From an uncultured Chromatiales bacterium (GTDB lineage: Bacteria > Bacteroidota > Ignavibacteria > SZUA-365), in assembly GCA_964448285.1 (NCBI GenBank), contig CAYUWG010000006.1, positions 13,715 to 77,714 on the forward strand: DNA of 64,000 nucleotides, written 5' to 3'. Of the stretch, positions 6,055-31,971 are shown in pieces (position 1 is the stretch's first letter; each line of letters opens with the position of its first letter). The notes beneath the pieces were generated by a model. The model was given only the letters and a program-made list of their open reading frames with translations. It had not been told where the DNA came from and searched no databases. Position numbers and translations under genes: made by a program.

Positions 6055-6131
6055 ATCAGCGAATCAATGACATTTGTTACAAGATCTTTTGAAACAGTTG
6101 TAAAATCGTTGGGATCGCTACGAGTAAACTC

Positions 6132-12959: not shown

Positions 12960-12962
12960 TCC

Positions 12963-13901: not shown

Positions 13902-14069
13902 AAAGGCCAGTGCGCGGCGCAGCAGTTCCGATAGTCCTGTTGGGCGCAATGAATCAAACCGAAGAATGAAAACTCATGTGCGGGAAACCATCGCGACTCA
14001 AACGAATCTCAATCGACAACCATCGACTATTCACAATTCACAAAACGCTCAACGCTATCCGGTGGTAAC

Positions 14070-14987: not shown

Positions 14988-15011
14988 CAGACAATTCAAA
15001 CCAAGGACTTT

Positions 15012-16214: not shown

Positions 16215-16233
16215 AATCATATCAGGAGTCTTT

Positions 16234-17559
16234 ATGGCAGAACAGAATCGCATCAACACCATCATCGTCGGAGCCGCAGGACGCGACTTCCACAATTTCA
16301 ACATGCTCTATCGCGACAACGAGCGTTACAACGTCGTCGCGTTCACGGCGAACCAGATCCCGAACATCGACGGAAGGAAATACCCCGCGTCGCTTGCGGG
16401 AAAGCTCTATCCCAAAGGCATTCCCATCCATAAGGAAGCGGAACTCGATGCGCTCATCGCAAAGCACGACGTTGAGGAGGTCGTCTTTTCGTACAGCGAC
16501 GTGGACTACGAGCACGTGATGCGCATCGGTGCCCGCGTGAATGCCGCTGGGGCGCATTTCAAAATGCTCGGCTCGACAAGGACCATGTTGAAAAGTTCGA
16601 AGCCGGTGATCGCCGTGTGTGCCGTTCGTACCGGTTGCGGGAAGAGCCAGACCACGAGGCGCGTCGCGAAACTTCTGCAGGAGATGGGAAAGAAAGTCGT
16701 TGCCGTGCGTCACCCGATGCCATACGGCGATCTCGCGAAGCAGGCGGTGCAGCGATTCGCTTCCGTTACAGATATGAAGAAGCACAAGTGCACCATCGAA
16801 GAAATGGAGGAATACGAACCGCACGTCGTGAGCGGAACCGTGATCTATGCCGGCGTGGATTACGAACGCATTCTTCGCGAAGCGGAGAAGGAAGCGGACG
16901 TGATCCTGTGGGACGGAGGCAACAACGACCTGCCGTTCTTCAAGCCGGACGTGCACATCGTCGTCACCGATCCTCACCGCGCAGGCGACGAACTGTACTA
17001 CTATCCCGGCGAAGCGAACCTGCGCATGGCCGACGTGGTTGTGATCAACAAGATCGACACGGCCGGACCTGAAGAGATTCACATTCTGCGGGACAACATC
17101 CGCTTCGCGAATCCGAAGGCCGTCGTCATCGATGCGGCCTCACCGATTCTCGTGAAGAACGCGGAGAAGATCGCCGGGAAGCGCGCACTGGTCGTTGAAG
17201 ACGGTCCGACGCTGACGCATGGCGAAATGAAATTCGGAGCGGGTGTGATCGCCGCACAAAAATTCGGCGCGAGCGAACTCGTCGATCCCCGCGCGTACGC
17301 AGTCGGCACGATCAAAGACACGTTCGCGAAGTATCCCGATATCGGCACGCTCCTCCCTGCGATGGGTTATGGCGACAAGCAGATCAAGGATCTCGAAAGC
17401 ACGATCAACAAAACGCCGTGCGACGTTGTCGTAATCGGAACGCCGATCGATCTTTCCCGCATCATTGAAATGAAAAAACCTGCCGTGCGCGTGACGTACG
17501 AACTTCAAGAGATCGGTGAGCCAAGCTTGAGGACGGTGTTAGGGAAGATGCAGAAATAG
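16234..17559 (+). CDS. P-loop NTPase of the COG2403 / cyclic-2,3-diphosphoglycerate-synthetase-like family (tentative)
   Basis: 441 aa. N-terminal Rossmann-like segment, then Walker A AVRTGCGKSQTT and Walker B-like ADVILWDGG. Its last ~20 codons are duplicated at 31979-32042. Confidence 0.55.
   Translation: MAEQNRINTIIVGAAGRDFHNFNMLYRDNERYNVVAFTANQIPNIDGRKYPASLAGKLYPKGIPIHKEAELDALIAKHDVEEVVFSYSDVDYEHVMRIGARVNAAGAHFKMLGSTRTMLKSSKPVIAVCAVRTGCGKSQTTRRVAKLLQEMGKKVVAVRHPMPYGDLAKQAVQRFASVTDMKKHKCTIEEMEEYEPHVVSGTVIYAGVDYERILREAEKEADVILWDGGNNDLPFFKPDVHIVVTDPHRAGDELYYYPGEANLRMADVVVINKIDTAGPEEIHILRDNIRFANPKAVVIDAASPILVKNAEKIAGKRALVVEDGPTLTHGEMKFGAGVIAAQKFGASELVDPRAYAVGTIKDTFAKYPDIGTLLPAMGYGDKQIKDLESTINKTPCDVVVIGTPIDLSRIIEMKKPAVRVTYELQEIGEPSLRTVLGKMQK
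17485..17548. repeat. Left copy of ~64-bp imperfect direct repeat (3' end of COG2403 gene); attL-like
   Basis: GTGCGCGTGACGTACGAACTTCA[A]GAGATCGGTGAGCCAAGCTTGAGGACGGTGTT[A]GGGAAGA recurs at 31979-32042 with 3-4 mismatches. Confidence 0.8.
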
Positions 17560-17678
17560 AGCGAGACCGAGGGTAACACTTTAGATTGGTATGCGAATGA
17601 CTTAAATCTAACTCTTTTCTGCGATTTTAAGATAAGACATCTCATTTCAAGACTTATTCAAGAAAAATAGAATGAGCC

Positions 17679-17708
17679 TTGACATTGACTCCGTCGATTT
17701 TCTATATT
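17679..17708 (+). promoter_or_regulatory. Candidate sigma70-like promoter (TTGACA-N18-TATATT) upstream of the first island gene
   Basis: TTGACA at 17679-17684, TATATT at 17703-17708, GGAG RBS at 17727-17730, ATG at 17739. Sits in AT-rich intergenic DNA. Confidence 0.35.
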
Positions 17709-17738
17709 TGTAATAGGTAATGGAAAACGGAGCTAAAC

Positions 17739-20327
17739 ATGAGCTTTTCTAACATCATCAAGCCACGGCCGGAAGTTCTTAAAAAAGATGGAATTGATAG
17801 CGTCATCGATATCGAGAATTTGCGTTCGAAGAGGTTAAAAGCAGTCGAAAGTAGGCCCAAGGACTTTTTCGATCTCACATATCCTACGAGCGACATCAGG
17901 TTTGTCGTAGAACATCTTCATCGAAGGTTCATGGGCAAAGAGGCTGGTGCAGGAACGTACTTGCTTGAAGGGTACAAAGGGAGTGGAAAATCTCATCTTG
18001 AATTGTTCGTGTACCATTTGCTCAATAGCCCAAATGATGCGCAGGAATGGCTGCTTCGAAACGATCTTGAGTGTGCGCTTCCAAAACAGCCGGTTACGGT
18101 TATTCGGAAATTCACCGATTTCCATATCGACACACTGTGGAACTGGATTTTTGACGAGTTGGGAGATCGGAAAAATATGGATCGCCCACCTGACTTGGAC
18201 CAATTTCGAAGAACACTGGCGGGTAGGCAGTTAATCCTGATTCTCGATGAATTGGAGATGGGTATCAAGAGCATTCCGAATGAGGCGAGCCGGGCACAAA
18301 ACCTCGCATTCATTCAAATGCTTAGCGAGGAGGCACAGAGATCGGAATCAGCCACGGTGACGGTGTTCGCATCCGTGTACGATTCAAACCAGGAAGCCGG
18401 GGCAACTCTTAAACGTGTCTCTCCGGTCAACATACGTTTCATGGAGCCGCAGGACAGAAGGAGAATCATTCAGCATAGATTGTTCGCTCAATTCGAAAAG
18501 CGTGAGACGAACCGGATAGATCAAGTCATCCAATCATATGTCAACGAATGGAAAAGGCATGATATCCAGGTTGATGAACGACACATCGAAAGCATGAGGG
18601 AGTCCTTTCCCTTCAGTCCTGAACTTCTTGATACAGTTTTGTACCGTGTTCCCGCAAAAGGTGGGTTTCAGGCGAACAGAGGAGCGCTCGGTCTTCTTGG
18701 AACGGTGGTTCGGCTAACACATAACAAAACCGATCTAATCACTACTGCGCATCTTGCTATCAGCGAACCTACGGTAAGAAATAAACTCGCCGACCTTGAT
18801 CCTGCCCAGAACTTCCTCGATTGCGCTGGCAGTGATTTCAATGATCTCAAAGAACTCAGTGTGGCTGAAGAAATCATTTCCAGTGTCCTTGTCGCATCAC
18901 TCGCGCCCGCTGGCCAGACCATCGGAATAACGGAGATGGAATTGAAGCGGCAAATCATCGAACCAGGGGATGACATCAATGTCTTCTCGAGTACGCTTCA
19001 TGCACTTGAAAAACTTGGGACCTACTTTCAACACCAAGAGGACAGATACTTTTTCGACACGCATGAGAAACCGAACGCCAAAGTGGAATATCGATCCCTA
19101 CGTATCGAAAGAGGCCGAGCGATCGACTATGCTTTGACAAAATGGAAGGTTGACCTTTTCAAAGATCCGGAAGCAGTAGTCTATCGTGATAGAGTTCAGG
19201 TTAACGAGGATCTTTCAATGAGGGACGCTAAGAGGATTAGGTTCGTCCTATCACCCTTTCGATTGAATGAAGATGAGAGAAGGAATGTCTTTCACGGTCA
19301 GCAGAACCAGAACATTATCCTACTCCTCGAACCGCGAACAACGACGTTCAATGCATTGGAGCACCCTGATATTATCAAATGGGGACAAAGGGCGCTTGCC
19401 GCCCAAGAGCTTATTCCCACAGCAGAATCAGACAGACGAAAGCACTATGAGAAGATTTTGGCGGAAGACACGAGATGGATCATCGATACGATCAAGCGGA
19501 CAGGGCTGCATCTGGTCTGGATACAGGACTATGGTGTCATGGAAGAGGAGAATCTTGGAAACGCGTCGACACGTGACGATGTCCTGAAACAATTGCGCGA
19601 CACAATATTTCCTCGTCAGCGCTTCGAGGAACATATCAAGGACCATATCAAGGATTTCTTCGGACAAACGGTTCGCTCCGTCGATGCAATATACAGGAAG
19701 ACGCTTGGCTACCCGATCAGAACAGCTGATTCAACTATCCCTGATGCTATTCGGGAATTATGCAAGTCTGGTGTCCTCGGTCTTATTCATGAACGAGCGA
19801 AAGCATGCGGAACGACCTTCGACCTATCATCGATGGAACTACTCGATGCGACGATTTCAGAGCCATTTGAGGAAGATCAGCCCGCAAAGATGCCCTTCAC
19901 TGAAGGTCTGGGATTCAAGGATCATACGGATACTAAATCGACTACGATCATCGATAAGTCACCCATTTACGATTCTCCTGTGTATTCGTACGAAACGCTC
20001 CAGTTACCGTTCACAACATCAATTCACTCACTACGACAGGGAATCGCAAGTCGTCTGGAGAATCACCCACAGTCGCAGATACACAAGGCAACGTTTTACA
20101 TTCTCATGAAGCATTCGGAGGTTGAACTTTCTTCTTTATCTGCTGCGGTTCGCGGCTCTCTGTCAGGAAAAGGTAGTATTGTCGCTGACATCACTATCAG
20201 TAGGGTTGGCGTCTTTTCCAAAGCTGCGATCGAACAGATGGTTGAGCAACTCCCGTCCTTCGAAGGCGCTCAGTACGGAATGGAATGCAAGATTGAAACT
20301 GTCAGGGAGACCGTATCAAGTGAATGA
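17739..20327 (+). CDS. P-loop ATPase, DUF499/BrxC(PglY)-like defence ATPase (tentative family assignment)
   Basis: 862 aa. Walker A LLEGYKGSGKSH near residue 80 and Walker B LILILDELE near residue 170, followed by a long non-enzymatic C-terminal region as in BREX BrxC-type ATPases. First gene after the AT-rich junction. Confidence 0.65.
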   Translation: MSFSNIIKPRPEVLKKDGIDSVIDIENLRSKRLKAVESRPKDFFDLTYPTSDIRFVVEHLHRRFMGKEAGAGTYLLEGYKGSGKSHLELFVYHLLNSPNDAQEWLLRNDLECALPKQPVTVIRKFTDFHIDTLWNWIFDELGDRKNMDRPPDLDQFRRTLAGRQLILILDELEMGIKSIPNEASRAQNLAFIQMLSEEAQRSESATVTVFASVYDSNQEAGATLKRVSPVNIRFMEPQDRRRIIQHRLFAQFEKRETNRIDQVIQSYVNEWKRHDIQVDERHIESMRESFPFSPELLDTVLYRVPAKGGFQANRGALGLLGTVVRLTHNKTDLITTAHLAISEPTVRNKLADLDPAQNFLDCAGSDFNDLKELSVAEEIISSVLVASLAPAGQTIGITEMELKRQIIEPGDDINVFSSTLHALEKLGTYFQHQEDRYFFDTHEKPNAKVEYRSLRIERGRAIDYALTKWKVDLFKDPEAVVYRDRVQVNEDLSMRDAKRIRFVLSPFRLNEDERRNVFHGQQNQNIILLLEPRTTTFNALEHPDIIKWGQRALAAQELIPTAESDRRKHYEKILAEDTRWIIDTIKRTGLHLVWIQDYGVMEEENLGNASTRDDVLKQLRDTIFPRQRFEEHIKDHIKDFFGQTVRSVDAIYRKTLGYPIRTADSTIPDAIRELCKSGVLGLIHERAKACGTTFDLSSMELLDATISEPFEEDQPAKMPFTEGLGFKDHTDTKSTTIIDKSPIYDSPVYSYETLQLPFTTSIHSLRQGIASRLENHPQSQIHKATFYILMKHSEVELSSLSAAVRGSLSGKGSIVADITISRVGVFSKAAIEQMVEQLPSFEGAQYGMECKIETVRETVSSE

Positions 20328-20346: not shown

Positions 20347-21288
20347 ATGATGCTGCAGCCGGGAGACCGACTGCCTGCAATTCAGATGTGGTTGAAGCAA
20401 TATGTGTGGTCCATTGACCGCTTTTCAGCGATGCCACCGGAAGACTATCTGAGAGACGGTGAGGCATGTGTTTTCAACGTGGAGGAGTTGATGCTTATTG
20501 CGGCGCCGAGGGTTTATGATGAGCTTTATGGTGCTTCCGAACGAGCAAAGCGAATCGAACAGCAGATCGCACCTGACGAACCAACCGCATTCGTCGTGCT
20601 TGATGGTGCCTCGATTCGGGAGATTCCCTTGTTCGAACGTTTAGCTTCCGAAACGGGCTTCCAGATAGTGGAATCAAGCTACAACATTTCAGCTCTCCCA
20701 AGTGATACTCTTTCTTTCATCGTTCAACGTATCACGAGCAAAGAAGTAGCTCCAGTCCAACTTCCAACGAGAAAGGAACTTATAGAACGAGGATGGAGCG
20801 TGTGGTATTACGACGCTGCGATTCGGAATCATGAGCTGCCGAACGATGGAAGACATCTCCTTCTCTGGTCTGCATTTCCGGACGCGACGTATGGGAATTT
20901 TGAAGCCAGGGCTGCGAGCCATTTCACAGGGATCGTCACGCTGTATGAGACAGTCTGGAAGAACGTAGTGCAGGCGATACCGAACGGATACAGGATCATT
21001 CTGACCAGCGACCACGGATATGCGTATTTCGGGACCGGGCTGGATTCGAATCATACAGTTTCGGGTCCGCGAATTCTGGAACAAGCACGTTACAAGTTTT
21101 TTTCAGACAGTGACGACTTTCCTGAACCTGCAATCGACCTCTACACACTCCCAGAAAAGCGACTCGCTGTCCTGAAAGGTCGGGTGAAGAACAGGCCACA
21201 GGGACCGATGGGGAATCGCGTGTATAGGCACGGCGGAATGTCGTTGATGGAAATGCTCACACCATGGCTCGTACTGAAAAGAATGTGA
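20347..21288 (+). CDS. PglZ-like alkaline-phosphatase-superfamily protein
   Basis: Motifs FVVLDGASIRE (metal-binding Asp strand), ILTSDHGYAYFG (DHG) and YRHGGMSLMEMLTPW (HGG.S..E..P) are the alkaline-phosphatase-superfamily core as seen in PglZ. An alternative GTG start at 20320 overlaps the upstream stop. Confidence 0.65.
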   Translation: MMLQPGDRLPAIQMWLKQYVWSIDRFSAMPPEDYLRDGEACVFNVEELMLIAAPRVYDELYGASERAKRIEQQIAPDEPTAFVVLDGASIREIPLFERLASETGFQIVESSYNISALPSDTLSFIVQRITSKEVAPVQLPTRKELIERGWSVWYYDAAIRNHELPNDGRHLLLWSAFPDATYGNFEARAASHFTGIVTLYETVWKNVVQAIPNGYRIILTSDHGYAYFGTGLDSNHTVSGPRILEQARYKFFSDSDDFPEPAIDLYTLPEKRLAVLKGRVKNRPQGPMGNRVYRHGGMSLMEMLTPWLVLKRM

Positions 21289-21316: not shown

Positions 21317-21583
21317 ATGAAAACACTCCAGCATCAGTCGAAGAAAGTAAAGATCGGAACGGTTCTCGATGAGGACATCCTCCGAAGATTGAAAGAACGA
21401 GCCGCACGTGAAGGGCGCACTATCGCCGCGCTCATCGAGGAAGCCGTCCTCAAGTACGAACAGGAGGAAGCGTTTGCGCGTGAGATGCGGCTCCGCGCTC
21501 TTGAATCAGTCTTTGCCGTCAAATTCAATATCTCGCGGGAGGACTTCGAGGCGATCATGGAAGAGGATTACTACGACCAATGA
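21317..21583 (+). CDS. Ribbon-helix-helix (CopG/VapB-like) antitoxin
   Basis: 88 aa. ILRRLKERAAREGRTIAALIEEAV is a typical RHH fold sequence. Overlaps the downstream PIN gene by 4 bp. Confidence 0.7.
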   Translation: MKTLQHQSKKVKIGTVLDEDILRRLKERAAREGRTIAALIEEAVLKYEQEEAFAREMRLRALESVFAVKFNISREDFEAIMEEDYYDQ

Positions 21584-22089
21584 ACCTGGACGACGTGAGA
21601 AATAGGGACGTGATCATTCTCGACGCGAATATCTTCGTGTATGGAGCGCTGGAGATGTCCGAGCAATGTATGCGTTTGCTCCGGCGATGCGCGGCGCGGG
21701 ATGTAACCGGTGTCGTTGGGTTGCAACAGATGGCGGAGGTCATGCACCGCCTCATGATGATCGAAGCGCGTGAAAACAAATGGACGCCGGGAGCGAATCC
21801 GGCCAAGACCCTTGCCAACCACCCGGATCGCGTGCGCTCGCTCAACAGGTACGAGCAGGCAGTCAAGGGATTCTTTGCAAGTGGCTTTCGATTTGAAACG
21901 CTCATGAAGGAGGATTTCGGGATCGCGCTCTCGTTGCAGCGGCAATTCGGGCTGATGACGAACGATGCACTTCTGGCTGCCATGGCGGAAAGACTCCGCA
22001 TCCAATCCATTGCGAGCGCGGATACGTCATTCGCGAACGTGCGAGGGATGATGCTGTATCAACCGGATGACGTTGTATCAACCGGATGA
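21580..22089 (+). CDS. PIN-domain ribonuclease toxin (VapC-like)
   Basis: 169 aa. N-terminal VIILDANIFVY (first acidic residue) and later MTNDALLAA motif typical of PIN domains. Confidence 0.75.
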   Translation: MNLDDVRNRDVIILDANIFVYGALEMSEQCMRLLRRCAARDVTGVVGLQQMAEVMHRLMMIEARENKWTPGANPAKTLANHPDRVRSLNRYEQAVKGFFASGFRFETLMKEDFGIALSLQRQFGLMTNDALLAAMAERLRIQSIASADTSFANVRGMMLYQPDDVVSTG

Positions 22090-22111
22090 TATGAAATAAG
22101 ACAGGCAGACA

Positions 22112-22531
22112 ATGAAGGAAAAAGAGGAAATATATCTTGAGGAACGAAGGATGCTGGTTCAGGCGGAGCAAGATGCTTATCAGCAGTTCGATAAAACGAT
22201 CATTACAATTGCAAGCGGAGGATTAGGACTCTCACTTCTTTTCTTGAAAGATATTCTCGACAAGGATCAAATCACTAGTCAATGGCTCCTGATTGTCTCA
22301 TGGTGTTCATTCATCCTTTCGATTCTTTCTACTCTCTTGTCATTTATGGGAAGCCAGCGCGCCTTTAGAAGACAAATAGAAATTACCGATGAATTGTATT
22401 CAAAGAATCAGACTCATGATTCTAATAACAAGCCAGCAAAAGCCACTGAGAAGTTGAACTACTTTTCGATTGGTTTCCTGATCTTAGCGATTATTCTCCT
22501 CGTCATTTTTGTTTCACTAAACTTTCAATGA
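22112..22531 (+). CDS. Hypothetical membrane protein (AT-rich cassette)
   Basis: 139 aa. Charged coiled N-terminus followed by 3 TM helices. Local GC about 38% versus about 55% in surrounding genes. Confidence 0.45.
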   Translation: MKEKEEIYLEERRMLVQAEQDAYQQFDKTIITIASGGLGLSLLFLKDILDKDQITSQWLLIVSWCSFILSILSTLLSFMGSQRAFRRQIEITDELYSKNQTHDSNNKPAKATEKLNYFSIGFLILAIILLVIFVSLNFQ

Positions 22532-22540
22532 GGTTTTATC

Positions 22541-22744
22541 ATGTCTGAAGACAAAAACGAAATAATTACAGTTGCAAATGGTAGGGTTCCATCTCTCTCG
22601 CACCCTCTTCTCAGCGATGCTAAAAAACCGCGTCTTGAGGGAGCCGTCCCTCCAAAACCTCCGGTGCCGCTGAAACCGACAACAAGCGAACCACAACCGG
22701 AGGGTGGAAGTCAGGGAAGCCCGCCGAAGGAGAAGAAGGAATGA
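22541..22744 (+). CDS. Hypothetical small Pro-rich protein
   Basis: 67 aa (PPKPPVPLKPTTSEPQPEGG). Overlaps the next ORF by 4 bp, with a GAGG-like RBS. Could be spurious. Confidence 0.3.
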   Translation: MSEDKNEIITVANGRVPSLSHPLLSDAKKPRLEGAVPPKPPVPLKPTTSEPQPEGGSQGSPPKEKKE

Positions 22745-23379
22745 CTTTGAGAAAAGGATTTGACCTCTATGAATACACAGGGATTCTCGTCCCTGGTTAC
22801 TTACTGTTGGTAGGAATAGCTCTTTTGCATCCTGAAGCGAAATCCTTCCTATTGTCTGTTAATTTCACAGTTGGCCATTTTGGGCTTTCGGTACTCCTTG
22901 CGTATTCCGCAGGGCATCTTCTACAAGCACTGGGAAACATGATCGAATATCTGTGGTGGGAACTCTATGGTGGTATGCCTACCGATTGGGTAAGAACTGG
23001 AAAGCATTTCCTCCTTGCACCAGATCAGATCGTAATGCTGAAGAACAAGATGTCAGCTATACTTGGACTTTCGGTCAAGAATGAACTGCAAGAATATTCG
23101 AAGGAGGAATGGTCCTCTATAATCCGGCAAGTATATGCGGCAATTGATGGAGATAACCGTTCAAAGCGTGTCGATATCTTCAACGGTCAATATGGCTTGA
23201 ACAGAGGTATAGGAGCTTCCTTTCTATTCCTTCTTGTTGTCACGTTGCTTTACTATGGGCTCTCCTCGTGGAGTATCCAGATTTGGCTATGTGCAGGATT
23301 CGTTGTTTCGATTTACAGGATGCATCGGTTTGGTAGGAATTATGGACACTCTCTTTTCATGTCTTTTATTATCGAATAA
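22741..23379 (+). CDS. Hypothetical polytopic membrane protein (AT-rich cassette)
   Basis: 212 aa with 4-5 TM segments. No recognisable family. Confidence 0.45.
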   Translation: MTLRKGFDLYEYTGILVPGYLLLVGIALLHPEAKSFLLSVNFTVGHFGLSVLLAYSAGHLLQALGNMIEYLWWELYGGMPTDWVRTGKHFLLAPDQIVMLKNKMSAILGLSVKNELQEYSKEEWSSIIRQVYAAIDGDNRSKRVDIFNGQYGLNRGIGASFLFLLVVTLLYYGLSSWSIQIWLCAGFVVSIYRMHRFGRNYGHSLFMSFIIE

Positions 23380-23482
23380 TAACAGTTTGTACTGAGCGTG
23401 GAAGATTTGTATAATTGCTTCTTATGTTGTATATTCATAATATGAAACAAATATTTATTACCCAAAATACAGGAGATAAGAA

Positions 23483-24424
23483 ATGAACATTCCAAAAAAG
23501 CGAACACGATTTCGTGCATATCAACTAAAGACTGAGGGGTCCTCATTTTCGTACTTTGATGGAGACGCATTTACACTTATCGAAGCGCGCTGCAATGAAC
23601 ATAATTGTTCGAATATATGTGATGAATTGGGGGAATGCGACAAGAGTAGAATTGATTCTCTTCATATTACGAGTTGGGATGAAGACCATTGTGCTTTTAA
23701 GGAGTTAGAGGAAATACTCGACACCTTCACGCCAAAAAGGATTGAATATCCTGGCTACGAACCGAAAACTGAAAATGGTAAGCATTGTTTAAGTGCAATT
23801 TATTCATACAATAAGAAAGAATGGAGATGGATAGTAAAAGTAAATCCAGAATATATTCGCGGTTTGAAGAAGGCGGAAGCGCTTGGCTATCAAGACATTT
23901 TGTACAATCCATTGGTTATCATGGAGACGTCGAACGACAATTCGACTATTAAATTCTTTCGAAAGGGATCATTTAACGTAATAAGCCTCGGTGATGTTGA
24001 GAGCCCGATGATTCGCTCGAGACTTGAAAGGCTCAGTATTTTCAATTCTGAGATAGACGTCATGATATTATCCCATCACGGCGCAGATAATGGCTTTACA
24101 ACCAAATCATTTTTAAGCAAAACAAAACCAACTGTGGCTATAGCTTCAGCTAATTACGAAAATGAATATGAACATCCAAGAAAGAGTATTCGAAACGATC
24201 TGTACGAATTGAACATACCAATCTTTACGTCTAAAACGGGAGATGTGATAATCGAATCCACAGGAGATCACACAGGCTCATATAGAGTCACAAACTTAAA
24301 GAGTGATTCGACGGATATATCGTCGCAAAGGGATTTTAAATCAAAGAAGGCATCCAAATTGACTCATAATGCGGATTCGATTCGAAATCATTATAATCCC
24401 AAGAGACCGTTTTATAGGTTCTGA
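23483..24424 (+). CDS. MBL-fold metallo-hydrolase, ComEC-C-terminal-like (possible nuclease)
   Basis: 313 aa. DVMILSHHGADNGFTTKSFLSKTKPTVAIASANYENEYEHPRKSIRNDLYELNIPIFTSKTGDVIIE parallels the ComEC/MBL pattern V.HHGS......FL..V.P..A.IS.G..N.YGHP. AT-rich. Confidence 0.5.
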   Translation: MNIPKKRTRFRAYQLKTEGSSFSYFDGDAFTLIEARCNEHNCSNICDELGECDKSRIDSLHITSWDEDHCAFKELEEILDTFTPKRIEYPGYEPKTENGKHCLSAIYSYNKKEWRWIVKVNPEYIRGLKKAEALGYQDILYNPLVIMETSNDNSTIKFFRKGSFNVISLGDVESPMIRSRLERLSIFNSEIDVMILSHHGADNGFTTKSFLSKTKPTVAIASANYENEYEHPRKSIRNDLYELNIPIFTSKTGDVIIESTGDHTGSYRVTNLKSDSTDISSQRDFKSKKASKLTHNADSIRNHYNPKRPFYRF

Positions 24425-24435
24425 CTACTTACCCC

Positions 24436-24642
24436 ATGATCCGCGCCATCGAAGAGTATTTCCCCATCGTGGACATCAACCGCCTTGCGGTGCCGGAGCG
24501 AAATGCGTTCAAACCGATCTATCAGATGCACAAGGGGTTTGCGCGGCGTTCGGTTATGGTTTTTCGTACGATCCTGTTGGGCGCGATGAAACCTGTCAAC
24601 CCAGATATTATGGAGGAGTTCTACGGGACGGAGAGACGATGA
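24436..24642 (+). pseudogene. Decayed in-frame duplicate of the first ~65 codons of the DUF1156 methyltransferase gene
   Basis: MIRAIEEYFPIVDINRLAVPERNAFKPIYQMHKGFARR... versus MTRAIEEYFPIVDINRLAVPERNAFKPIYQMHKWFARR... at 25609. Roughly 85% nucleotide identity over ~190 bp (my manual alignment). Terminates at an ATGA overlap with the next gene. Confidence 0.7.
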
Positions 24643-24983
24643 AACGAAGCACATCCCAAAGAAAATCGCAACTCGAGCGCCTACCTCAATCGGTTCGTGA
24701 TATCTTCTGGGAATACGAAAAAGGGTCCATCTCATGGCAGAAGGACCGCGACCTCATCATCAAGAAAATCTTACATCACGGGTCGTGGGACGCCCTGTGT
24801 TGGATGAGGTCGGTCATCGATGACGAATCGCTTCGAACGTGGTTGATCGATCATGATGGTGCGGGTCTCGATGCGAAGCGATTGCGCTACTGGCAACTCA
24901 TCCTCAACCTGCCGGTGTCCAACGTGAACAAGTGGATTCAAACATACCGGGATAATCCCTGGAGCCGGAGGATGACGGGATGA
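24639..24983 (+). CDS. Small protein encoded upstream of and overlapping the AbiEii-type toxin gene; putative cognate antitoxin/regulator
   Basis: 114 aa (MKRSTSQRKSQLERLPQSVRDIFWEYEKGS...). Its start overlaps the stop of the methylase fragment and its stop overlaps the AbiEii start (ATGA). Family not recognised; shorter than classical AbiEi. Confidence 0.45.
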   Translation: MKRSTSQRKSQLERLPQSVRDIFWEYEKGSISWQKDRDLIIKKILHHGSWDALCWMRSVIDDESLRTWLIDHDGAGLDAKRLRYWQLILNLPVSNVNKWIQTYRDNPWSRRMTG

Positions 24984-25612
24984 AGATCCACGAGGAGGTA
25001 TTGTCGCCGCGGCAAAAGAACCTTGCCCGTCGCATCGGGCCGGCACTTTCCCGACAGGGTTTTTATCTCGCAGGTGGGACGGCATTGGCTCTCATGGTGG
25101 GACATCGGCATTCTGTTGACTTCGACTACTTCATCGACGATCCGATGAACGATCCTCAATCCGTCATCGAGACCTTGCGCAAGGTCGGTTGTAATCCTAT
25201 CGTGGAGATTCTGGAGAAAGGCACTGTTCACGTGACGTGGTCGAGCGTCAGGATGTCTTTCATTACGTACCGCTATCCGATGCTCCAGCCTTTCGTTGAA
25301 TGGAAAGAAGGTGGATGTCGGCTTGCTTCGCTGGACGATATCGCATGCATGAAGCTTTCCGCTCTTGCGCAACGTGGTTCGAAGAAAGACTTCATCGATG
25401 CATTCGCGCTGATCCGGAAACACAAACCGCTTTCGGATCTCCTGCAACTCTATCAAAAAAAATTCGATGTCTCTGAGATTGTTCATGTGCTCTATGGATT
25501 GAGCTATTTCGACGACGCAGACAAAGAGCGTTCACCCAGGATGCTGTGGGATGTCTCATGGAAAGAGATAAAGAAAAAGCTCACAGAACACGTAAGGAAC
25601 CTCTCCCCATGA
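24980..25612 (+). CDS. Nucleotidyltransferase of the AbiEii/AbiGii toxin family
   Basis: 210 aa. FYLAGGTALALMVGHRHSVDFDYF is the family's characteristic GG.AL..HR.S.D.D motif region. Stop overlaps the methylase start (ATGA). Confidence 0.7.
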   Translation: MKIHEEVLSPRQKNLARRIGPALSRQGFYLAGGTALALMVGHRHSVDFDYFIDDPMNDPQSVIETLRKVGCNPIVEILEKGTVHVTWSSVRMSFITYRYPMLQPFVEWKEGGCRLASLDDIACMKLSALAQRGSKKDFIDAFALIRKHKPLSDLLQLYQKKFDVSEIVHVLYGLSYFDDADKERSPRMLWDVSWKEIKKKLTEHVRNLSP

Positions 25613-28600
25613 CCCGCGCCATTGAAGAATACTTCCCCATCGTGGACATCAACCGCCTCGCGGTGCCGGAGCGCAATGCGTTCAAGCCGATCTACCAGAT
25701 GCACAAGTGGTTTGCGCGACGTTCGTCGTCGGTGTTTCGCGCGATACTGCTTGCGGCAATGAAGCCCGCCGGTATGGACATCATGAAGGAATTTTACCTG
25801 GATCACACGAACGATCCCGACACGAATGGGAAGGTGATACTCGACCCGTTCATGGGCGGTGGCACCACCGTCGTGGAGGCACTACGGCTTGGCTGCAACG
25901 TGATCGGCATCGACCTCAATCCCGTCGCGTGGTTCATCGTGAAGACGGAAGTGGAACCGGTGGACATCGACAGCTTGAAAGCCTCGTTCGAACGGCTCGC
26001 GAATCGCACAGTGGACTGGTCGGGCAAACCGCTGAAGGAAACACTGCTCGATCTGTACAAAACCGTGTGCCCGGGTTGCGGCGGTGAAGCGGATATCATC
26101 TACACGTTCTGGGTAAAATCCGCGCCCTGCACGACGGGAACTTGTAAAACGCAGACGCCGCTGTTTTCTGACTTCATCATCGCACAGAAGAAACCGTCCA
26201 TTCGGTACTCCCCTGACTGCACCTGTCCTTCCTGTGCGAAGGAATTCGACTGGGAGCGCGAACCCGCTTCGCTGATCGCTGAAGAAAAACTGATGGTGTC
26301 TGCGACGGCTTATTCCGCCGGTGATGGAAGGCAGAATGCACGATGGGCCTTTTCGGCTGACAAGAAAGTGACCTGTCCGTGGTGTAGGATGGATGTTAGG
26401 CCGAAACCCAAATCGCTCAAACTCAAACGCAAGAAGATTCCGCTCAATGTGTTGCTCTGCCCGCACTGCGAGGAAGTCTGGCAGTACCGTGGTGAGTTGC
26501 CGGATTCCGTTGCATGCCCGACGTGCGCACATGAATACGATCCAACGAAAGGCAACATCCCCGGCACGGGGAAGTTCATCTGTCGCGGCACGTGCAACGG
26601 CAACGTCGATACCGTGATTACCGCCATTCGCACGCTTCCTGAAGAAAGACTCTTGCCCATCCGCCTGTATGCGATGGAAGGCTACTGCCCCCGCTGTGCG
26701 AAAAAACCGGGCGGGAAAGAAACTCCGATGGTTGTTAACGAACCGATGTTCGAATATCAACCCTCTCCCGGTCACTCCGTGACACCCCTCTCCCGAACCG
26801 GGAGAGGGGACGGGGGTGAGGGTCTTCTCTGGAAAAACTCCGGCAAGTTCTTCAAGCGCGTTTCACCCGTTGACCTTGCCCGGTACCTGGAAGCAAGTTC
26901 TATCTGGCAGAGAGAGAAAAAGAATCTACCGCACCCGGTTTCCGAAATACCAGTCGGTGAAAAAACGAAGTCTGGCTTACATTCACATCACTACCGCTAT
27001 TGGTGGCAGATGTTCAATGACAGACAGTTGTTGGCGCTGAGCACGCTACTGAAAGGGATTGGGGAGGAGGGTGAGCAGGTAGCAAAGGAGATGTTATTAA
27101 CAGCGTTTTTCAGTGCGCTTGAGACAAGTAATTTGTTTACTAGATATCACTCTACGAGGTTTTTGTCCGCTGGAGTTTTTGCCCGTCATGATTACCAACC
27201 GAAGGTGACAATTTGCGAAAACAACGTCTGGGGTACGCTATATGGAAATCAAACATATAACAATACGTTTGAGAAGGTTATTGATGGAAAATCTTTCGCA
27301 CTTAATCCTACTGATCTAAAATATTGTGATGAAAAATATAAACCGATAGCTTCCCATGATTCACTTTCCAACCTCGAGCTGGATGAAAATGTCCTATTAA
27401 AAGCTAAATCATCAACCAATATGGATGAGATAGAAAACTCTTCCATAGAATTTGTTATTACAGATCCACCATACGCCGGCAATGTCAACTACGCGGAGTT
27501 GTCGGACTTCTTCTATGTCTGGCTTCGTCTCCTGCTGAAGGAGAAGTATCCGCAGTTTCTTCCGGAGTATGTGCCAAAGGCGGAGGAGATTATCGAGAAC
27601 AGAACGCGGGGAAAATCATCGAAGGACTTCAAGGAGGGACTCCGCGCCGTCTTCCGCGAAGGGCATCGCGTCTTGAAAGACGACGGATTGCTTGTATTCA
27701 CCTTCCATCACGCTGAAGGCTCTGCCTGGGAGGCACTGCTCGAATCGGTCTGTGAAGCGGGCTATTACATCGAAGCCGTGTATCCCATACACGGGGAGGC
27801 GGAGAACTCACTGCACCTGATGAACAACGAAGCCATCTCCTACGATCTCATACACGTCTGCAAGAAAGCAACCGCCCAGCAGACCTGGGCGAAGCGCTCC
27901 TGGGCAGGCGTACGGCACGATATCAGGAAGAGGGCACGCGAAGAAGCGAGGCTCATCGAGTCCGGCAGGTACGGCAACGAGCCACTCCCTGCTGCTGATA
28001 TCAACATTCTCCTCATCGGAAAATGCCTCGAGCTGTACAGCAAGCACTACAACCGCATCGTGGATCATGAAGACAAGCCGATACCTCTGCATCAGGCGTT
28101 GGAAGAAATCAAGATGCTCGTCGATCAGATCGTCGCGCGCGAGAAGCCGCTCCCGCCGGAACTCGAAGAGGGCGTCGATCCCGTCTCCTACGTCTATCTC
28201 ACTGCTCTTGCCGGTCAACGGGAAATCCAGAGCGATCACGTCAGCAAGCAGACGCGCGGCATCATCGAAACGTCCGAGTTGAAGGAACATGGCCTGCTCA
28301 TCAAAGGTCGCGCGAAGCGCGGACGTACGTTCGAGATCAAACAACCGGTTGAGCGCCTCAACGACCTGAAGAAGAAGTTCTACGACGACGGGGTGTTGAC
28401 GCAACTCCCGCTGTTCGGTGAGAACGGTTCACCGCTGCCCAAGGGCCTGCTCTTCGTGGATTGCGTGCAACTGCTGTTGGGTCTCGCGGAGAACGGTGAG
28501 AACGTGCTACCGTGGCTCGACCGTCTTCGTGGTTTGCGTCCGCAACTTCGCGCCGCGCTTTCATATCTGCATGACCGGAATATCTTCACCGTTCCCTCCA

Positions 28601-28647
28601 GGAAAATCCTCTCCCTCATCGACGAGCGTACGCTCTTCAATACGTGA
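25609..28647 (+). CDS. DUF1156-type adenine-specific DNA methyltransferase with multiple Zn-ribbon inserts
   Basis: 1013 aa from ATG 25609; the track's upstream extension is unlikely. N-terminus MTRAIEEYFPIVDINRL. Motif I DPFMGGGTTVVEA lies before motif IV FVITDPPYAGNV. Five Cys-x-x-Cys pairs lie between them (CPGCGG, CPSC, CPWC, CPHC, CPTC). Confidence 0.8.
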   Translation: MTRAIEEYFPIVDINRLAVPERNAFKPIYQMHKWFARRSSSVFRAILLAAMKPAGMDIMKEFYLDHTNDPDTNGKVILDPFMGGGTTVVEALRLGCNVIGIDLNPVAWFIVKTEVEPVDIDSLKASFERLANRTVDWSGKPLKETLLDLYKTVCPGCGGEADIIYTFWVKSAPCTTGTCKTQTPLFSDFIIAQKKPSIRYSPDCTCPSCAKEFDWEREPASLIAEEKLMVSATAYSAGDGRQNARWAFSADKKVTCPWCRMDVRPKPKSLKLKRKKIPLNVLLCPHCEEVWQYRGELPDSVACPTCAHEYDPTKGNIPGTGKFICRGTCNGNVDTVITAIRTLPEERLLPIRLYAMEGYCPRCAKKPGGKETPMVVNEPMFEYQPSPGHSVTPLSRTGRGDGGEGLLWKNSGKFFKRVSPVDLARYLEASSIWQREKKNLPHPVSEIPVGEKTKSGLHSHHYRYWWQMFNDRQLLALSTLLKGIGEEGEQVAKEMLLTAFFSALETSNLFTRYHSTRFLSAGVFARHDYQPKVTICENNVWGTLYGNQTYNNTFEKVIDGKSFALNPTDLKYCDEKYKPIASHDSLSNLELDENVLLKAKSSTNMDEIENSSIEFVITDPPYAGNVNYAELSDFFYVWLRLLLKEKYPQFLPEYVPKAEEIIENRTRGKSSKDFKEGLRAVFREGHRVLKDDGLLVFTFHHAEGSAWEALLESVCEAGYYIEAVYPIHGEAENSLHLMNNEAISYDLIHVCKKATAQQTWAKRSWAGVRHDIRKRAREEARLIESGRYGNEPLPAADINILLIGKCLELYSKHYNRIVDHEDKPIPLHQALEEIKMLVDQIVAREKPLPPELEEGVDPVSYVYLTALAGQREIQSDHVSKQTRGIIETSELKEHGLLIKGRAKRGRTFEIKQPVERLNDLKKKFYDDGVLTQLPLFGENGSPLPKGLLFVDCVQLLLGLAENGENVLPWLDRLRGLRPQLRAALSYLHDRNIFTVPSRKILSLIDERTLFNT

Positions 28648-28656
28648 GGCAATGCC

Positions 28657-29079
28657 ATGTCCTACATACTCATAGAACACAACCATCTCTCACCGCCCCG
28701 CTTGGCAGGTCAGGGTTTTAAGGCAAACACGCACCGTATCGGATTTCTGGACTTCCTCCGTGAATTGGACAGGGAAGAATTTCCATTCCACGAAAGCAGT
28801 CACCTGCTTGTTGTTGGCCTTGAGGACGTACTGCTTTTTTCGCGTCCCCACATGCACTCCATTGCGTTAGACATCCGAAATCGATTGAAGCGTGTCGCGA
28901 ATGATTTTGAACGATGTCCTCATGTTCAAATCGTTTTCATGAAAGGGCATCTCGTCGCAGGCGCAGAGCTTCGGTTGGAAATGAAACCTGAGCCATTGCC
29001 TCTGCACCTCATTTTCGGAACGCCACAACGGATGGAAAACGGCTTCGTCTATTACTTGGCGCCGTTCAACCTGAGTTAA
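28657..29079 (+). CDS. Small conserved-looking protein between methylase and helicase (DUF3780-like position; unassigned)
   Basis: 140-aa ORF 10 bp after the methylase stop, same strand. No motif recognised. Confidence 0.45.
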   Translation: MSYILIEHNHLSPPRLAGQGFKANTHRIGFLDFLRELDREEFPFHESSHLLVVGLEDVLLFSRPHMHSIALDIRNRLKRVANDFERCPHVQIVFMKGHLVAGAELRLEMKPEPLPLHLIFGTPQRMENGFVYYLAPFNLS

Positions 29080-29115: not shown

Positions 29116-31971
29116 ATGAATACATCGGCGTTTACCGACAGAACATCGGAAAAGGGCACACCCTATAGTCCCGGCCAACGTGTCCGAGTAGCCGGACGAG
29201 AAGATCTCGGAATAGGCGAAGTGCTACGTGTGAGTGATATCTACGGCGTGTATCAGGCGGACATTATCTTTGAAACCAGTGGATTACGACGATTGGAAAG
29301 CTTCCCTGTCGAGCGTCTCGAGCATGCCCCCGACTTATGGGAGCGATTGAAGAAGGGAATGTTCGACGATCCGAATGACGTACTCTTCAAACAACTCGCG
29401 TTTCAGTTTCCATTGCAAAACAAGGGAGGTCAACTCTCGAACAGTCGAACGCAATTGTTACCTCATCAGATTCTGCTGACTCGGGACGTGGTTGCATCAC
29501 ACCGTCGTCGCTATCTCATCGCTGATGAAGTGGGGCTGGGGAAAACGATCGAGATCGGCATGATCCTTAGGGAACTGGAGTCCCGGCGTGAAGCGTCACG
29601 CATGTTGATCATTGCGCCGGCAGGCCTGATCAAAAACTGGCAACAGGAATTACGGGATGCATTTCGACTGCATTTCGAAATTCTTGGGATCGACTTCATG
29701 GACCACGGCTCAACAACGTGGGAAATGAAAAGCAAGGTGATCGTTTCCATCGATACGATCAAGCGCAGCCCGAGGCTCGATCGTTTGCTTGCGGGTCCTC
29801 GTTGGGACGTGATCGTTTTCGATGAAGCCCACCATTTGAGTCGCAATCGGTATGGAAAGAAAATCGTCCCAACTCAAAACTATCGTCTTGCCGAATCCCT
29901 TCGTTCTCACACGAGGGATTTCCTTCTCCTTTCTGCAACACCCCATCAGGGAAACACCTATCAGTTCTGGTCGCTCATCCAACTCTTGAACGATTCGCTG
30001 TTCGATTCCGAAGAGGCCATGATCCAGCATCGAGGGCTTTTGAATCAGGTCATGATTCGTCGAACGAAACGGGAGGTAACGGATCGTCACGGGAATCCTA
30101 TTTTCATGCGTCGTCAGGTTCATACAGAACGCTTTCTGCAATCCGCACGGGAGCGAATGTTCTATGAGAAGCTTACGGAATACCTCAAGGAGGGGTACTC
30201 CGTTGCCCGGATCGGTGAAACCAAAGTGACGACAGAGGAACGCGCGATCGGGTTTGTCATGACGACGTTTCAGAAGATCATGTCCTCCAGCATTCGTGCT
30301 ATCCGGCAGGCATTGCGTCGAAGATTGCTCGTATTGCTCATCCGCCATTATATGGAATTAGAGCAGAAGAGATCGAAGCGTGGGCCTGACGAGACTATAG
30401 ATCGGAAGATTCTGGAAGTGCAGGATGAAATGCGCATGATTACTTCACATATCCTTGGCATTGATAATATCGCTGCCAATACAGGCGACATCGATGCCTT
30501 CATAGCGCAGACCAGACAAAAGGTGAGTCGCAAATTTCTCGTCGAAGAAAGCACACTGTGGTCCCTTGACGCTGACGAAGAGGCAGAGGAAGAACTCTAT
30601 GCCACGGTGAATATTCCCGATGAGATTCGGAAAGTCCGTTCGCTCATCTCCGTTATTCCTGACGGTCGGGATAGGAAATTTGAAACGCTCATCAACGCAA
30701 TCGAATCTATCCGGCAGGATAACCCATCCGAGAAGTTCGTGATCTTTACGCAGTACATCGAGACCTTGAAATTTCTCGAGGAGGAGTTGGGGGCGCTTTA
30801 TGGAAAACAAAAGATTGCGATCATTCGGGGTGGTCCACTGGAAAACAAGATTGAAGCTGTAGAAAGGTTCTGGGATGAACGAGGTGCACAATTCCTTATC
30901 TGCACATCGGCTGGTGGAGAAGGGATCAATCTTCAGATCGGAAGGATCCTTTTCAATTACGATTTGCCCTGGAATCCTATGGCGGTTGAACAACGCATAG
31001 GGCGCATTCACCGCTTCGGGCAGAAGGAAACGGCACAGATATATAATCTCATTGCCGAGGATACTGTAGAAGAACATATCTATGACCTTCTGAACAGGAA
31101 GTTGAGGGAAATTGCGTCACAAATCGGTAAAGTAGATTCATCCACAGGTGAGCCGCGTGAAGATTTCCGCAATGAAATACTGGGATTTCTCGGTTCCAGT
31201 CCCAGCTATCTCGATCTGTACAAGCGTGCTATCTTGGACAGAGATTACCGACGAACGGAACACGAGATTGAAGAAGCGATACGGAAAGCGCGTGAAGCAA
31301 GTGAAGCGCTTTCATCCTTCACTCAAGATCTCGATTCATTCGATTTGCGCGATTATCTCGCGATGGAGGGATCGTTTACACTTGATCACCTAATGGAATT
31401 CATTTTTCAAGCAGTACTCCGATTGGAAGGCGCTGTTCTTCCCCGTGATGAGTTTCATTCCATACAGACCCCTCCCAGTCTTTTACGGTACCCAAGTGTT
31501 TCCGCGAAGTATGACACTGTCACTTTCGATCGTGACGCGGCTATGAGAAAAAAGAGTGTCGAATTCCTTGGTCTCGGACATCCTTTCGTAGATGCAGTGG
31601 TAGAGCATTTTCAACAGTCTGCATTTCCAGGCGACGTGAGCTGTATCTCGCGTTTGAGTCATGAACAACCCTATACCGTCTTCCTTACCTTGATCACGAT
31701 CGGTTTGGAAGATGGTACTGTCCACCAGGAATTGAATCTCATGCGGGTAACACAATCGGGTGATGCACAGGTGTTGCCTGATCACTGGCTCTTTCAGCGG
31801 TTCGAACAGCGCGATTCCTTGTTCGAACCAGTGGAGAGTCTTTTTGATTTCATGTCAATCAGGATGTCGTACGAATCAGCAATCGGCGCTATTCTGACTC
31901 AAATGAAAGCATCAATGATCAATCCTATCAGCGCACGGTTGCGATTGCTTGGAGTATTGAACGTCGCTTGA
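29116..31971 (+). CDS. SNF2/RapA-family helicase (DISARM DrmD-like position)
   Basis: 951 aa. Motifs I LIADEVGLGKTIE, II VIVFDEAHHL, III LLLSATPHQG, V ICTSAGGEGINLQ and VI YDLPWNPMAVEQRIGRIHRFGQ. Confidence 0.88.
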   Translation: MNTSAFTDRTSEKGTPYSPGQRVRVAGREDLGIGEVLRVSDIYGVYQADIIFETSGLRRLESFPVERLEHAPDLWERLKKGMFDDPNDVLFKQLAFQFPLQNKGGQLSNSRTQLLPHQILLTRDVVASHRRRYLIADEVGLGKTIEIGMILRELESRREASRMLIIAPAGLIKNWQQELRDAFRLHFEILGIDFMDHGSTTWEMKSKVIVSIDTIKRSPRLDRLLAGPRWDVIVFDEAHHLSRNRYGKKIVPTQNYRLAESLRSHTRDFLLLSATPHQGNTYQFWSLIQLLNDSLFDSEEAMIQHRGLLNQVMIRRTKREVTDRHGNPIFMRRQVHTERFLQSARERMFYEKLTEYLKEGYSVARIGETKVTTEERAIGFVMTTFQKIMSSSIRAIRQALRRRLLVLLIRHYMELEQKRSKRGPDETIDRKILEVQDEMRMITSHILGIDNIAANTGDIDAFIAQTRQKVSRKFLVEESTLWSLDADEEAEEELYATVNIPDEIRKVRSLISVIPDGRDRKFETLINAIESIRQDNPSEKFVIFTQYIETLKFLEEELGALYGKQKIAIIRGGPLENKIEAVERFWDERGAQFLICTSAGGEGINLQIGRILFNYDLPWNPMAVEQRIGRIHRFGQKETAQIYNLIAEDTVEEHIYDLLNRKLREIASQIGKVDSSTGEPREDFRNEILGFLGSSPSYLDLYKRAILDRDYRRTEHEIEEAIRKAREASEALSSFTQDLDSFDLRDYLAMEGSFTLDHLMEFIFQAVLRLEGAVLPRDEFHSIQTPPSLLRYPSVSAKYDTVTFDRDAAMRKKSVEFLGLGHPFVDAVVEHFQQSAFPGDVSCISRLSHEQPYTVFLTLITIGLEDGTVHQELNLMRVTQSGDAQVLPDHWLFQRFEQRDSLFEPVESLFDFMSIRMSYESAIGAILTQMKASMINPISARLRLLGVLNVA

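Follow-up and report, generated by a model that had tools for sequence, protein, structure and literature searches.

Does a short AT-rich run of four open reading frames (ORFs), lodged inside a defense island of an uncultured Chromatiales bacterium, form a defense system of its own, and if so, how is it built? The run occupies positions 22100 to 24430 of a 64,000-nucleotide (nt) stretch of contig CAYUWG010000006.1 (hereafter, the window). It encodes two small membrane proteins (ORF1 and ORF3), a proline-rich micro-ORF (ORF2), and a stand-alone hydrolase with a ComEC-type metallo-β-lactamase (MBL) fold, whose family we call MBL-A. A reading made from the letters alone (the sequence-only reading) had taken the four genes for one secondarily acquired cassette and a possible mini defense system. 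We find that this "four-ORF cassette" is two units, ORF1 plus ORF2 (module A) and ORF3 plus the MBL gene (module B), both placed at a single junction of an Hma-like system. For module B we infer a defense function, and we tentatively interpret it as an autonomous pair of the abortive-infection type.

The four ORFs belong to two modules with different histories

A cassette that acts as one unit had been proposed, and its recurrence in other genomes did not bear this out. The full set was found in only one other place, a sibling island (L014), and ORF1+ORF2 and ORF3+MBL each have a separate distribution of their own. In L014 the genes run in the order ATPase, PglZ-like, RHH, PIN, ORF1 homolog, a 78-amino-acid (aa) Pro/Gly-rich ORF, ORF3 homolog, a 403-aa MBL, and methylase. 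Identity between the window and L014 is 54% for ORF1 and 48% for ORF3, against 48 to 63% for the host genes, and the 78-aa ORF is a positional homolog of ORF2 (31% identity; E = 6e-5). Because ORF1 and ORF3 have diverged as far as the host genes, ORF1 to ORF3 were already embedded in the common ancestor of the two islands. These comparisons indicate that ORF1 to ORF3 kept pace with the divergence of their host island and that the MBL gene alone has been replaced since then: the MBLs of the two islands share 25% identity over 88 residues and are not orthologs. The very low GC content of the window's MBL gene and its AT-rich spacer fit such a later replacement. The gap between ORF3 and the MBL gene is 3 nt in L014 and 103 nt in the window. 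Secondary acquisition is thus only partly right as a description: the MBL gene was exchanged, and ORF1 to ORF3 were in place before the two islands separated. Recent acquisition of the whole cassette was also considered and was rejected on the same equality of divergence. The RHH-PIN pair is kept at the equivalent place in L014; the DUF6922-AbiEii pair of the window is absent from that island.

MBL-A has a ComEC-like fold and keeps seven of eight metal-ligand positions

The C-terminal half of the hydrolase had been said to follow the ComEC-type MBL pattern, and sequence and structure searches agree. Its sequence matches to ComEC span residues ~150 to 263 and include the NDNS, GD, HHG, and HP motifs. 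It matches the ComEC/Rec2 model TIGR00361 (E = 1.4e-11; 43 bits against a cut-off of 190) over model positions 493 to 650 only, the C-terminal part, and the MBL domain of ComEC in the PDB (9ic4) at E = 1.9e-5 by sequence and at 6.7e-10 with a family profile. The same domain is the top Foldseek match of its AlphaFold2 model (predicted local distance difference test [pLDDT] = 82.5; E = 4.5e-13; TM-score = 0.62/0.71), and phosphorylcholine esterase Pce (2bib, 1wra) scores nearly as high. Unlike ComEC, MBL-A is a stand-alone cytoplasmic protein lacking an OB fold or competence channel: the window protein contains no hydrophobic segment, signal peptide, or transmembrane (TM) segment, and it is not fused to a ComEC membrane channel or OB domain. 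Its C-terminal tail is basic and disordered. The possibility that this C terminus is a conserved conjugation site was rejected, as the tail is variable and basic and has no conserved terminal Gly.

The C-terminal domain of ComEC carries an H-x-D-x-D-H motif together with Asn, Asp, and His ligands, binds Mn2+, and is an Mn2+-dependent nuclease (PMC8579336). In an alignment of 22 MBL-A sequences of ~55% identity (alignment A1), the motifs TRFR, LHITSWDxDH, SLGD, HHGA, and HP are invariant. Alignment by hhalign with canonical defense MBLs (probability, 98.6%) sets LHITSWDEDH against liiTHpDxDH. Motif II of the window protein accordingly reads S64-W-D66-E-D68-H69: of its four ligands D66, D68, and H69 are retained, and the place of the first His is taken by a Ser that is invariant throughout the family. 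N151/N153 (motif III Asn), D171 (the bridging Asp of motif IV), and H198-H199 (motif V) are invariant or nearly so and align with ComEC, and H231 is also conserved in MBL-A. Whether the metal ligands would survive a proper alignment had been singled out as a possible weakness of the first interpretation; seven of the eight ComEC positions are kept, with the one His-to-Ser substitution running through the family. MBL-A resembles the ComEC C-terminal domain (PDB 9ic4; Silale et al. 2021) in its motif II D-x-D-H, motif III Asn, motif IV Asp, HHG, and HP, and differs from it in the Ser that stands for the first His of motif II. ComEC of S. pneumoniae itself has Asn at that position, and its activity is uncertain (PMC8579336). 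Taking sequence and modeled fold together, MBL-A is probably an Mn2+/Zn2+-dependent phosphodiesterase or nuclease that acts on nucleic acid.

MBL-A has at least 1555 homologs and is ~55% identical across Planctomycetota, Bacteroidota, Pseudomonadota, and other phyla. A phage collection held no full-length homolog, only distant MBLs of 26 to 28% identity, and plasmids yielded only three MBL-A homologs.

ORF3 is a helical membrane protein whose relatives adjoin several MBL subfamilies

A Kyte-Doolittle scan of ORF3 revealed three hydrophobic segments, and its AlphaFold2 model is all-helical (pLDDT = 92.9). The model gave no match with E < 0.9 among PDB folds. About 20 homologs (21) were found at 30 to 48% identity, and the conserved motifs are FDxYExxGxLxPG, GGMPTDWVR, FNGxYGLNRG, and YRMHRFG. 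ORF3 also gave a weak, near full-length match to PADLOC's model for Csx27, a membrane protein accessory to type VI-B CRISPR-Cas13b, with marginal scores (E = 5e-5, and 2e-5 and 4e-3 for two homologs).

Homologs of ORF3 adjoin four MBL subfamilies, found in the window, L014, L011, and L013. In L011 (positions 6039 to 8526) a 318-aa MBL, an ORF3 homolog, and a 289-aa MBL lie between housekeeping genes; L013, likewise between housekeeping genes, has a 272-aa MBL that matches PDC-M48B over its full length (7.5e-80), followed by an ORF3 homolog. The ORF3 family also aligns with the TM proteins encoded directly upstream of MBL-A in L021, L046, L050, L082, and L092 (hhalign probability, 99.6%; E = 1.2e-23). 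Two further relationships did not hold up: the comparison with PDC-M48A-like proteins was not significant (hhalign probability, 1.1%), and that with an X207-like TM family was only borderline (48%). On these profile comparisons we claim homology of ORF3 only with the 245- to 270-aa TM group.

MBL-A is coupled to exchangeable membrane-active partners

We compiled the neighbors of MBL-A at 76 of 80 species-level GTDB loci, using a crude ORF calling of our own and BLAST-based labels; the categories overlap, and one locus may have several types of neighbor. A patatin phospholipase was present at 34 of these 76 loci and a multi-TM protein at 25. An E2-E1-JAB fusion gene lay within four genes at 17 loci, with a second MBL of ~380 aa at 11 of these, and 10 loci had another MBL as a neighbor; at 7, nothing was recognized. 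The multi-TM proteins comprise a PDC-M48A-like group of 160 to 180 aa (11 loci), an "X207"-like group of 207 to 242 aa (9 loci), and an ORF3-like group of 245 to 270 aa (5 loci). The PDC-M48A-like label rests on the TM protein of L023, a bona fide PDC-M48A protein (9e-58) that has MBL-A directly downstream. Partner genes often overlap the start of the MBL-A gene by 4 nt. Partner type is only partly clustered on the MBL-A tree, from which we conclude that partners have been switched repeatedly and frequently.

Taken with the MBL subfamilies found beside ORF3, these data establish a genetic coupling between a ComEC-like hydrolase and a membrane-active partner, one that survives exchange of either. 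The pairing of a membrane effector with a nuclease-like hydrolase, which the sequence-only reading had put forward, does recur in unrelated genomes; the roles come out differently, as the census points instead to a constant MBL beside a swappable membrane effector.

MBL-A loci are sporadic, sometimes plasmid borne, and often inside or beside systems of the restriction-modification (RM) type. L007 has MBL-A within a type I RM operon, L003 has it next to HsdR, Schlafen, and ImmA, and L006 has it next to AAA_21/RloB; matches to RM, DrmD, and BrxH occurred among randomly sampled neighbors. The 64 kb of the window held no patatin, E2-E1-JAB gene, or second MBL (tblastn of two E2-E1-JAB proteins gave none at E ≤ 0.01).

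In many loci two different ComEC-like MBL genes stand side by side or flank a TM gene (L011, 6039 to 8526; L003, 6001 to 8138; L038, 5061 to 7019), examples being MBL-A with the 380-aa "MBL2" and the 318-aa and 289-aa MBLs around an ORF3 homolog. Of 100 other MBL-A neighbors sampled at random, about 5 are MBLs too. Such dual MBLs could be pairs of a catalytic and a regulatory paralog.

ORF1 and ORF2 are a split form of a large unannotated family

ORF1, in which a Kyte-Doolittle scan also found three hydrophobic segments, at first looked like an orphan, with two matches in a k-mer-indexed search. An exhaustive HMMER search overturned this: 3734 cluster representatives matched at E ≤ 1e-3, and 1110 still did so at E ≤ 1e-10. 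The family has no model in Pfam or PADLOC. In 57 of the 150 best ORF1 relatives, the TM domain continues into a fused tail of 40 aa or more. Pro makes up 12% or more of 38 of these tails, and 29 contain one or more GxVPP-like motifs; the tails end in KKK, and the junction keeps an internal "M(S/A)(D/E)KK". ORF2 starts with MSEDK, contains GRVPS and GAVPP, and ends in KEKKE. Because the fused tails resemble ORF2, we regard ORF1 and ORF2 as two pieces of what is a single protein in other members of the family, and the micro-ORF as real. The family to which they belong is large, lacks annotation, and joins a three-TM domain to a Pro-rich tail with GxVPP repeats.

At 77 metagenome loci (L099 to L175), the ORF1 family does not adjoin ORF3 or an MBL, and in about 10 distinct metagenome loci it lies directly downstream of ~1000-aa, Eco57I/MmeI-like type IIG RM enzymes. 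The ORF1+ORF2 family, which counts thousands of unannotated members, varies between fused and split architectures, and often follows a type IIG enzyme, is a lead in its own right and a candidate for a cheap test.

The segment is embedded at one junction of an Hma-like system

The four ORFs lie where they had been placed, all on the forward strand, and the first three are indeed chained, with 9 nt between ORF1 and ORF2 and a 4-nt ATGA overlap between the stop of ORF2 and the start of ORF3 (Table 1). ORF2 is preceded by a GAGG Shine-Dalgarno sequence 8 nt upstream. At its thresholds Pfam matched none of the four, and NCBIfam gave no above-threshold match for ORF1 to ORF3. Just upstream of the spacer between ORF3 and the MBL gene, at 23343 to 23372, is a promoter-like TGGACA-18-TATTAT, which is a consensus match only (10 of 12 positions); scans for promoters and terminators returned nothing beyond shuffled expectation. 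Rfam recognized no RNA family between 21000 and 26000.

Table 1. Genes and other features of the segment and its host island

Feature	Positions	Strand	Description
HmaC/DUF499-like ATPase	17739-20327	+	PADLOC HmaC 2.7e-19, DUF499 3e-17; NCBIfam DUF499_antiphage 3.6e-21
PglZ-like protein	about 20347-21288	+	Weak PADLOC PglZ matches
RHH antitoxin	21317-21583	+	Pfam RHH_1 9.8e-6
PIN toxin	21580-22089	+	Pfam PIN 4.5e-8; RHH-PIN pair directly upstream of ORF1
ORF1	22112-22531	+	139 aa; coiled N terminus, three hydrophobic segments
ORF2	22541-22744	+	67 aa, 19% Pro; two G-x-V-P-(P/S) motifs, KEKKE end
ORF3	22741-23379	+	212 aa; all-helical membrane protein (modeled), MBL partner
Spacer between ORF3 and MBL	23380-23482	+	103 nt, 27% GC, AGGAG Shine-Dalgarno
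MBL (MBL-A)	23483-24424	+	313 aa; stand-alone ComEC-type hydrolase with MBL fold
Remnant copy of methylase 5' end	24432-24624	+	Leaves a 68-aa ORF at 24436-24642
DUF6922	24639-24983	+	Pfam 5e-7
AbiEii	24980-25612	+	Pfam 3.5e-15
HmaB/DUF1156 methylase	25609-28647	+	PADLOC HmaB 3.5e-39
DUF8076	28657-29079	+	Pfam match
HmaA/BrxH-like SNF2 helicase	29116-31971	+	PADLOC HmaA 3.9e-96, BrxHI 3e-105

The drop in GC content that first drew attention to the segment is real, though slightly overstated at 38% versus ~55%: exact computation gives 40.4%, against 47 to 56% in neighboring genes. By gene the values are 38.6% (ORF1), 52.0% (ORF2), 42.9% (ORF3), and 38.3% (MBL). Composition is thus not uniform, and the segment is the lowest of all 2331-bp intervals in the 64 kb, ~3 standard deviations under their mean (51.1%; standard deviation, 3.5%).

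Five genes make up the host system, a variant of Hma: they encode a DUF499 ATPase, a short PglZ-like protein, a DUF1156 methylase, DUF8076, and an SNF2 helicase. HmaA, HmaB, and HmaC were all matched, each over partial length, and the PglZ-like gene is an extra. This gene is absent from the PADLOC definition of Hma, and its homologs are also present on haloarchaeal plasmids. The same five core genes run uninterrupted on Aminobacter pSR6 and Ensifer pT173c, where 12 bp separate the PglZ-like gene from the DUF1156 gene. Given that contiguity and that 12-bp gap, everything from 21317 to 25612 in the window is embedded at the junction of the PglZ-like gene and the methylase, and the nesting of the segment inside an Hma-like system, as the sequence-only reading had it, is real.

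Besides the four ORFs, the junction holds an RHH-PIN pair and a DUF6922-AbiEii pair (gene calls in the latter region were taken from L009), both of them classic toxin-antitoxin/Abi pairs. The DUF6922-AbiEii pair sits between the two copies of a 193-nt direct repeat (24432 to 24624 and 25605 to 25797; 80% ungapped identity) that duplicates the 5' end of the DUF1156/HmaB gene. This duplication has the look of a scar left when insertion or recombination brought in the AbiE-like pair. No other direct or inverted repeat flanking the AT-rich segment was convincing, with the exception of a 19-nt tandem duplication at the 3' end of the PIN gene (22046 to 22083; GGATGATGCTGTATCAACC / GGATGACGTTGTATCAACC). 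A partial third copy of this repeat holds the stop codon, and the repeat is located exactly at the junction with the AT-rich segment. Farther out, GC content falls from ~57% to ~40% at 17400 to 18000, marking the left edge of the island. Directly upstream of the island, at 11958 to 17559, are arginine biosynthesis genes, which encode ornithine carbamoyltransferase, a class III aminotransferase, and a member of the amino-acid kinase family.

What is embedded in Hma, BREX, or type I RM systems is for the most part a defense system in its own right; the "PDC" candidates of PADLOC were derived by such "guilt-by-embedding", and the embedded systems that were assayed acted independently of their host system (Payne et al., bioRxiv 10.1101/2024.01.29.577857).

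Module B is related to named candidate systems

The sequence-only reading had recognized no named family, and here it missed two relatives: PDC-M48, a PADLOC candidate made of a TM protein and an MBL, and the "specialised MBL" of the type 6a operons of Iyer, Burroughs, and Aravind. PDC-M48 is the closest of these (cassette CAS_00157, FAM_01875>>FAM_00178; TM>>MBL, 63 instances, "assign as candidate"). Like module B, it has a small multi-TM gene directly upstream of a ComEC-like MBL gene, on the same strand, and is embedded in a DNA-modification defense system; the window differs in that its host system is Hma-like. Both window proteins fail the PDC-M48 models, and their link to the class runs through partner exchange only (L023, 9e-58; L013, 7.5e-80).

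Type 6a, described in 2006, combines an E2-E1-JAB triple-module protein with the specialised MBL and is the sister of type 6b, which is type II CBASS (PMC1779556). The MBL-A family adjoins these operons in, for example, G. oxydans pGOX1, Pseudoalteromonas, and Geobacter, and the window's MBL is 48% identical to the pGOX1 copy and 55 to 57% identical to the MBL-A proteins of L002 and L003. Type 6a loci differ from the window in having a second, ~380-aa MBL beside E2-E1-JAB, and MBL-A is usually beside patatin.

ComEC-like MBLs are proven double-stranded-DNA nuclease effectors in Avs, Hachiman, and Lamassu (PMC12642450, PMC12799240), and defense MBL nucleases (HamM and VcMBL/AtMBL, from Hachiman, Avs, Lamassu, and DRT) are zymogens activated by a protease (PMC12799240, PMC12642450). 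MBL-A resembles these enzymes as a defense-associated ComEC-like hydrolase of a kind recurrently acquired as a module by unrelated systems, and it weakly matches the PADLOC model LmuA (4e-5). It differs in its altered motif II and in its partner, a membrane protein in the window and patatin elsewhere. Pfam and PADLOC scans of the island genes detected no protease domain, and no trypsin-, caspase-, or subtilisin-like protease adjoins the window's MBL, whose neighbors are ORF3 and the methylase remnant. CBASS and Pycsar, with their patatin (CapV) and TM effectors, offer an analogy only: there, too, a constant enzyme is combined with alternative membrane-damaging partners and an optional E1/E2/JAB regulator. 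In MBL-A, however, the enzyme is an MBL hydrolase rather than a nucleotide cyclase, and the partners have no recognizable ligand-sensing domain.

Discussion

How might the ORF3-MBL pair act? In the reading toward which we lean, MBL-A would be the constant upstream component, which either detects infection or is triggered by it, and the membrane partner would be a swappable executioner that damages the membrane, namely, ORF3 in the window and a patatin phospholipase or another multi-TM protein elsewhere. MBL-A may itself also degrade DNA. We read the partner in this way because the partners span a phospholipase and unrelated TM families, with membrane action as their sole common trait. The data show the gene anatomy, the fold, the kept active-site residues, the recurrent pairing, the swapping of partners, and the embedding; the defense function, the signaling direction, and the substrate of MBL-A are inferred.

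Several observations weigh against this proposal. Neither ORF3 nor MBL-A has a recognizable sensor domain. The invariant Ser in place of the first His of motif II means that MBL-A could be specialized or inactive. Relatives of ORF3 with differing MBL types are equally readable as evidence that the MBL is the swappable effector. The defense context of MBL-A, judged from the random sample of neighbors, is moderate and not overwhelming, and the divergence of ORF1 to ORF3 in step with their host island would fit accessories of the host system too. The tie to PDC-M48 is loose as well: the best match of the window's MBL to PDC-M48B (PDLC04673; E = 7e-8) covers residues 150 to 235 only, and ORF3 has no PDC-M48A match at E ≤ 0.1. 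Our literature search found no characterized system for PDC-M48 itself, nor for Cap2/Cap3 with an MBL or patatin with an MBL and E1/JAB.

The best-surviving alternative reverses the polarity. The MBL would be the executioner nuclease and ORF3 a membrane sensor or anchor, which either holds the nuclease inactive or senses a perturbation of the envelope or of DNA entry and then releases or activates it, in the manner of Kiwa or Zorya. Such an arrangement would suit the pairing of close ORF3 homologs with four MBL subfamilies, some of them of the canonical THpDxDH type, with matches to the models of nucleases proven to be activated by a protease (RTasMBL, LmuA-associated). It would also suit the effector role demonstrated for MBL nucleases in other systems and the attachment of the MBL nuclease to a membrane channel in ComEC. 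We nevertheless consider it somewhat unlikely: the commonest partner of MBL-A is patatin (in defense systems such as CBASS an effector rather than a sensor), the exchange of a phospholipase for three unrelated TM families resembles effector swapping, and MBL-A is unusually conserved, with an altered motif II.

It is very unlikely, in our judgment, that the four genes are not autonomous but belong to this one Hma-like/PglZ system as accessory subunits, such as an extra effector arm recruited by its ATPase or helicase. Their shared orientation and tight spacing with the host genes, the equal divergence that speaks for joint inheritance of ORF1 and ORF3 with the host genes, and the restriction of the full four-gene arrangement to two islands would all be expected of subunits. 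Set against these are a core host system that exists without the four genes, ORF3+MBL pairs between housekeeping genes (L011, L013), MBL-A modules in 76 other loci without Hma, an ORF1 family found mostly beside type IIG RM enzymes, and the independence from the host system of the embedded systems assayed by Payne et al. Highly improbable, finally, is a role outside defense. The MBL would then be an inactive pseudo-enzyme or else a housekeeping phosphodiesterase that partners a membrane protein, such as a Pce-like phosphorylcholine esterase or an enzyme of DNA uptake or turnover, and the low GC content would mark horizontal cargo. The close Foldseek score of Pce, the His-to-Ser replacement, and some MBL-A loci with no recognizable defense neighbors favor this view. 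Against it, sporadic occurrence across phyla at ~55% identity, plasmid-borne copies, embedding in RM and Hma systems, association with patatin and E2-E1-JAB, and the MBL's lack of a signal peptide or TM segment are all a poor fit for a housekeeping envelope enzyme.

The preferred reading, an autonomous pair with MBL-A upstream and a swappable membrane executioner, can be carried further. The LHITSWDxDH family could be the hub of an unrecognized, widespread immune pathway, in which a ComEC-like hydrolase replaces the cyclase of a CBASS-like architecture. MBL-A would then sense infection by hydrolyzing nucleic acid or nucleotides and license either patatin or one of at least three TM families, ORF3 among them, with ubiquitin-like conjugation by E2-E1-JAB (type 6a) regulating it in about one-fifth of loci. 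The window would hold a minimal, conjugation-free version, and ORF1+ORF2 would be a second, separate and very abundant family of membrane effectors, one that has a GxVPP-repeat tail and accompanies type IIG enzymes. Taken jointly, this set of proposals is quite unlikely to be right in full.

The PDC-M48 class and the neighborhood of an MBL with E2-E1-JAB reported in 2006 are already known, and the window's pair is a variant of that candidate kind. The locus is a clear case of small modules stacking at one Hma-like junction, with the recombination scars still visible. If module B is a working defense system, the PDC-M48 candidate class would broaden into a family centered on one conserved hydrolase that swaps patatin and membrane partners, and the E2-E1-JAB "6a" operons, for which our literature search found no experimental characterization, would be tied in. 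The pair would then also provide a simple two-gene model for how a ComEC-like hydrolase communicates with a membrane effector.

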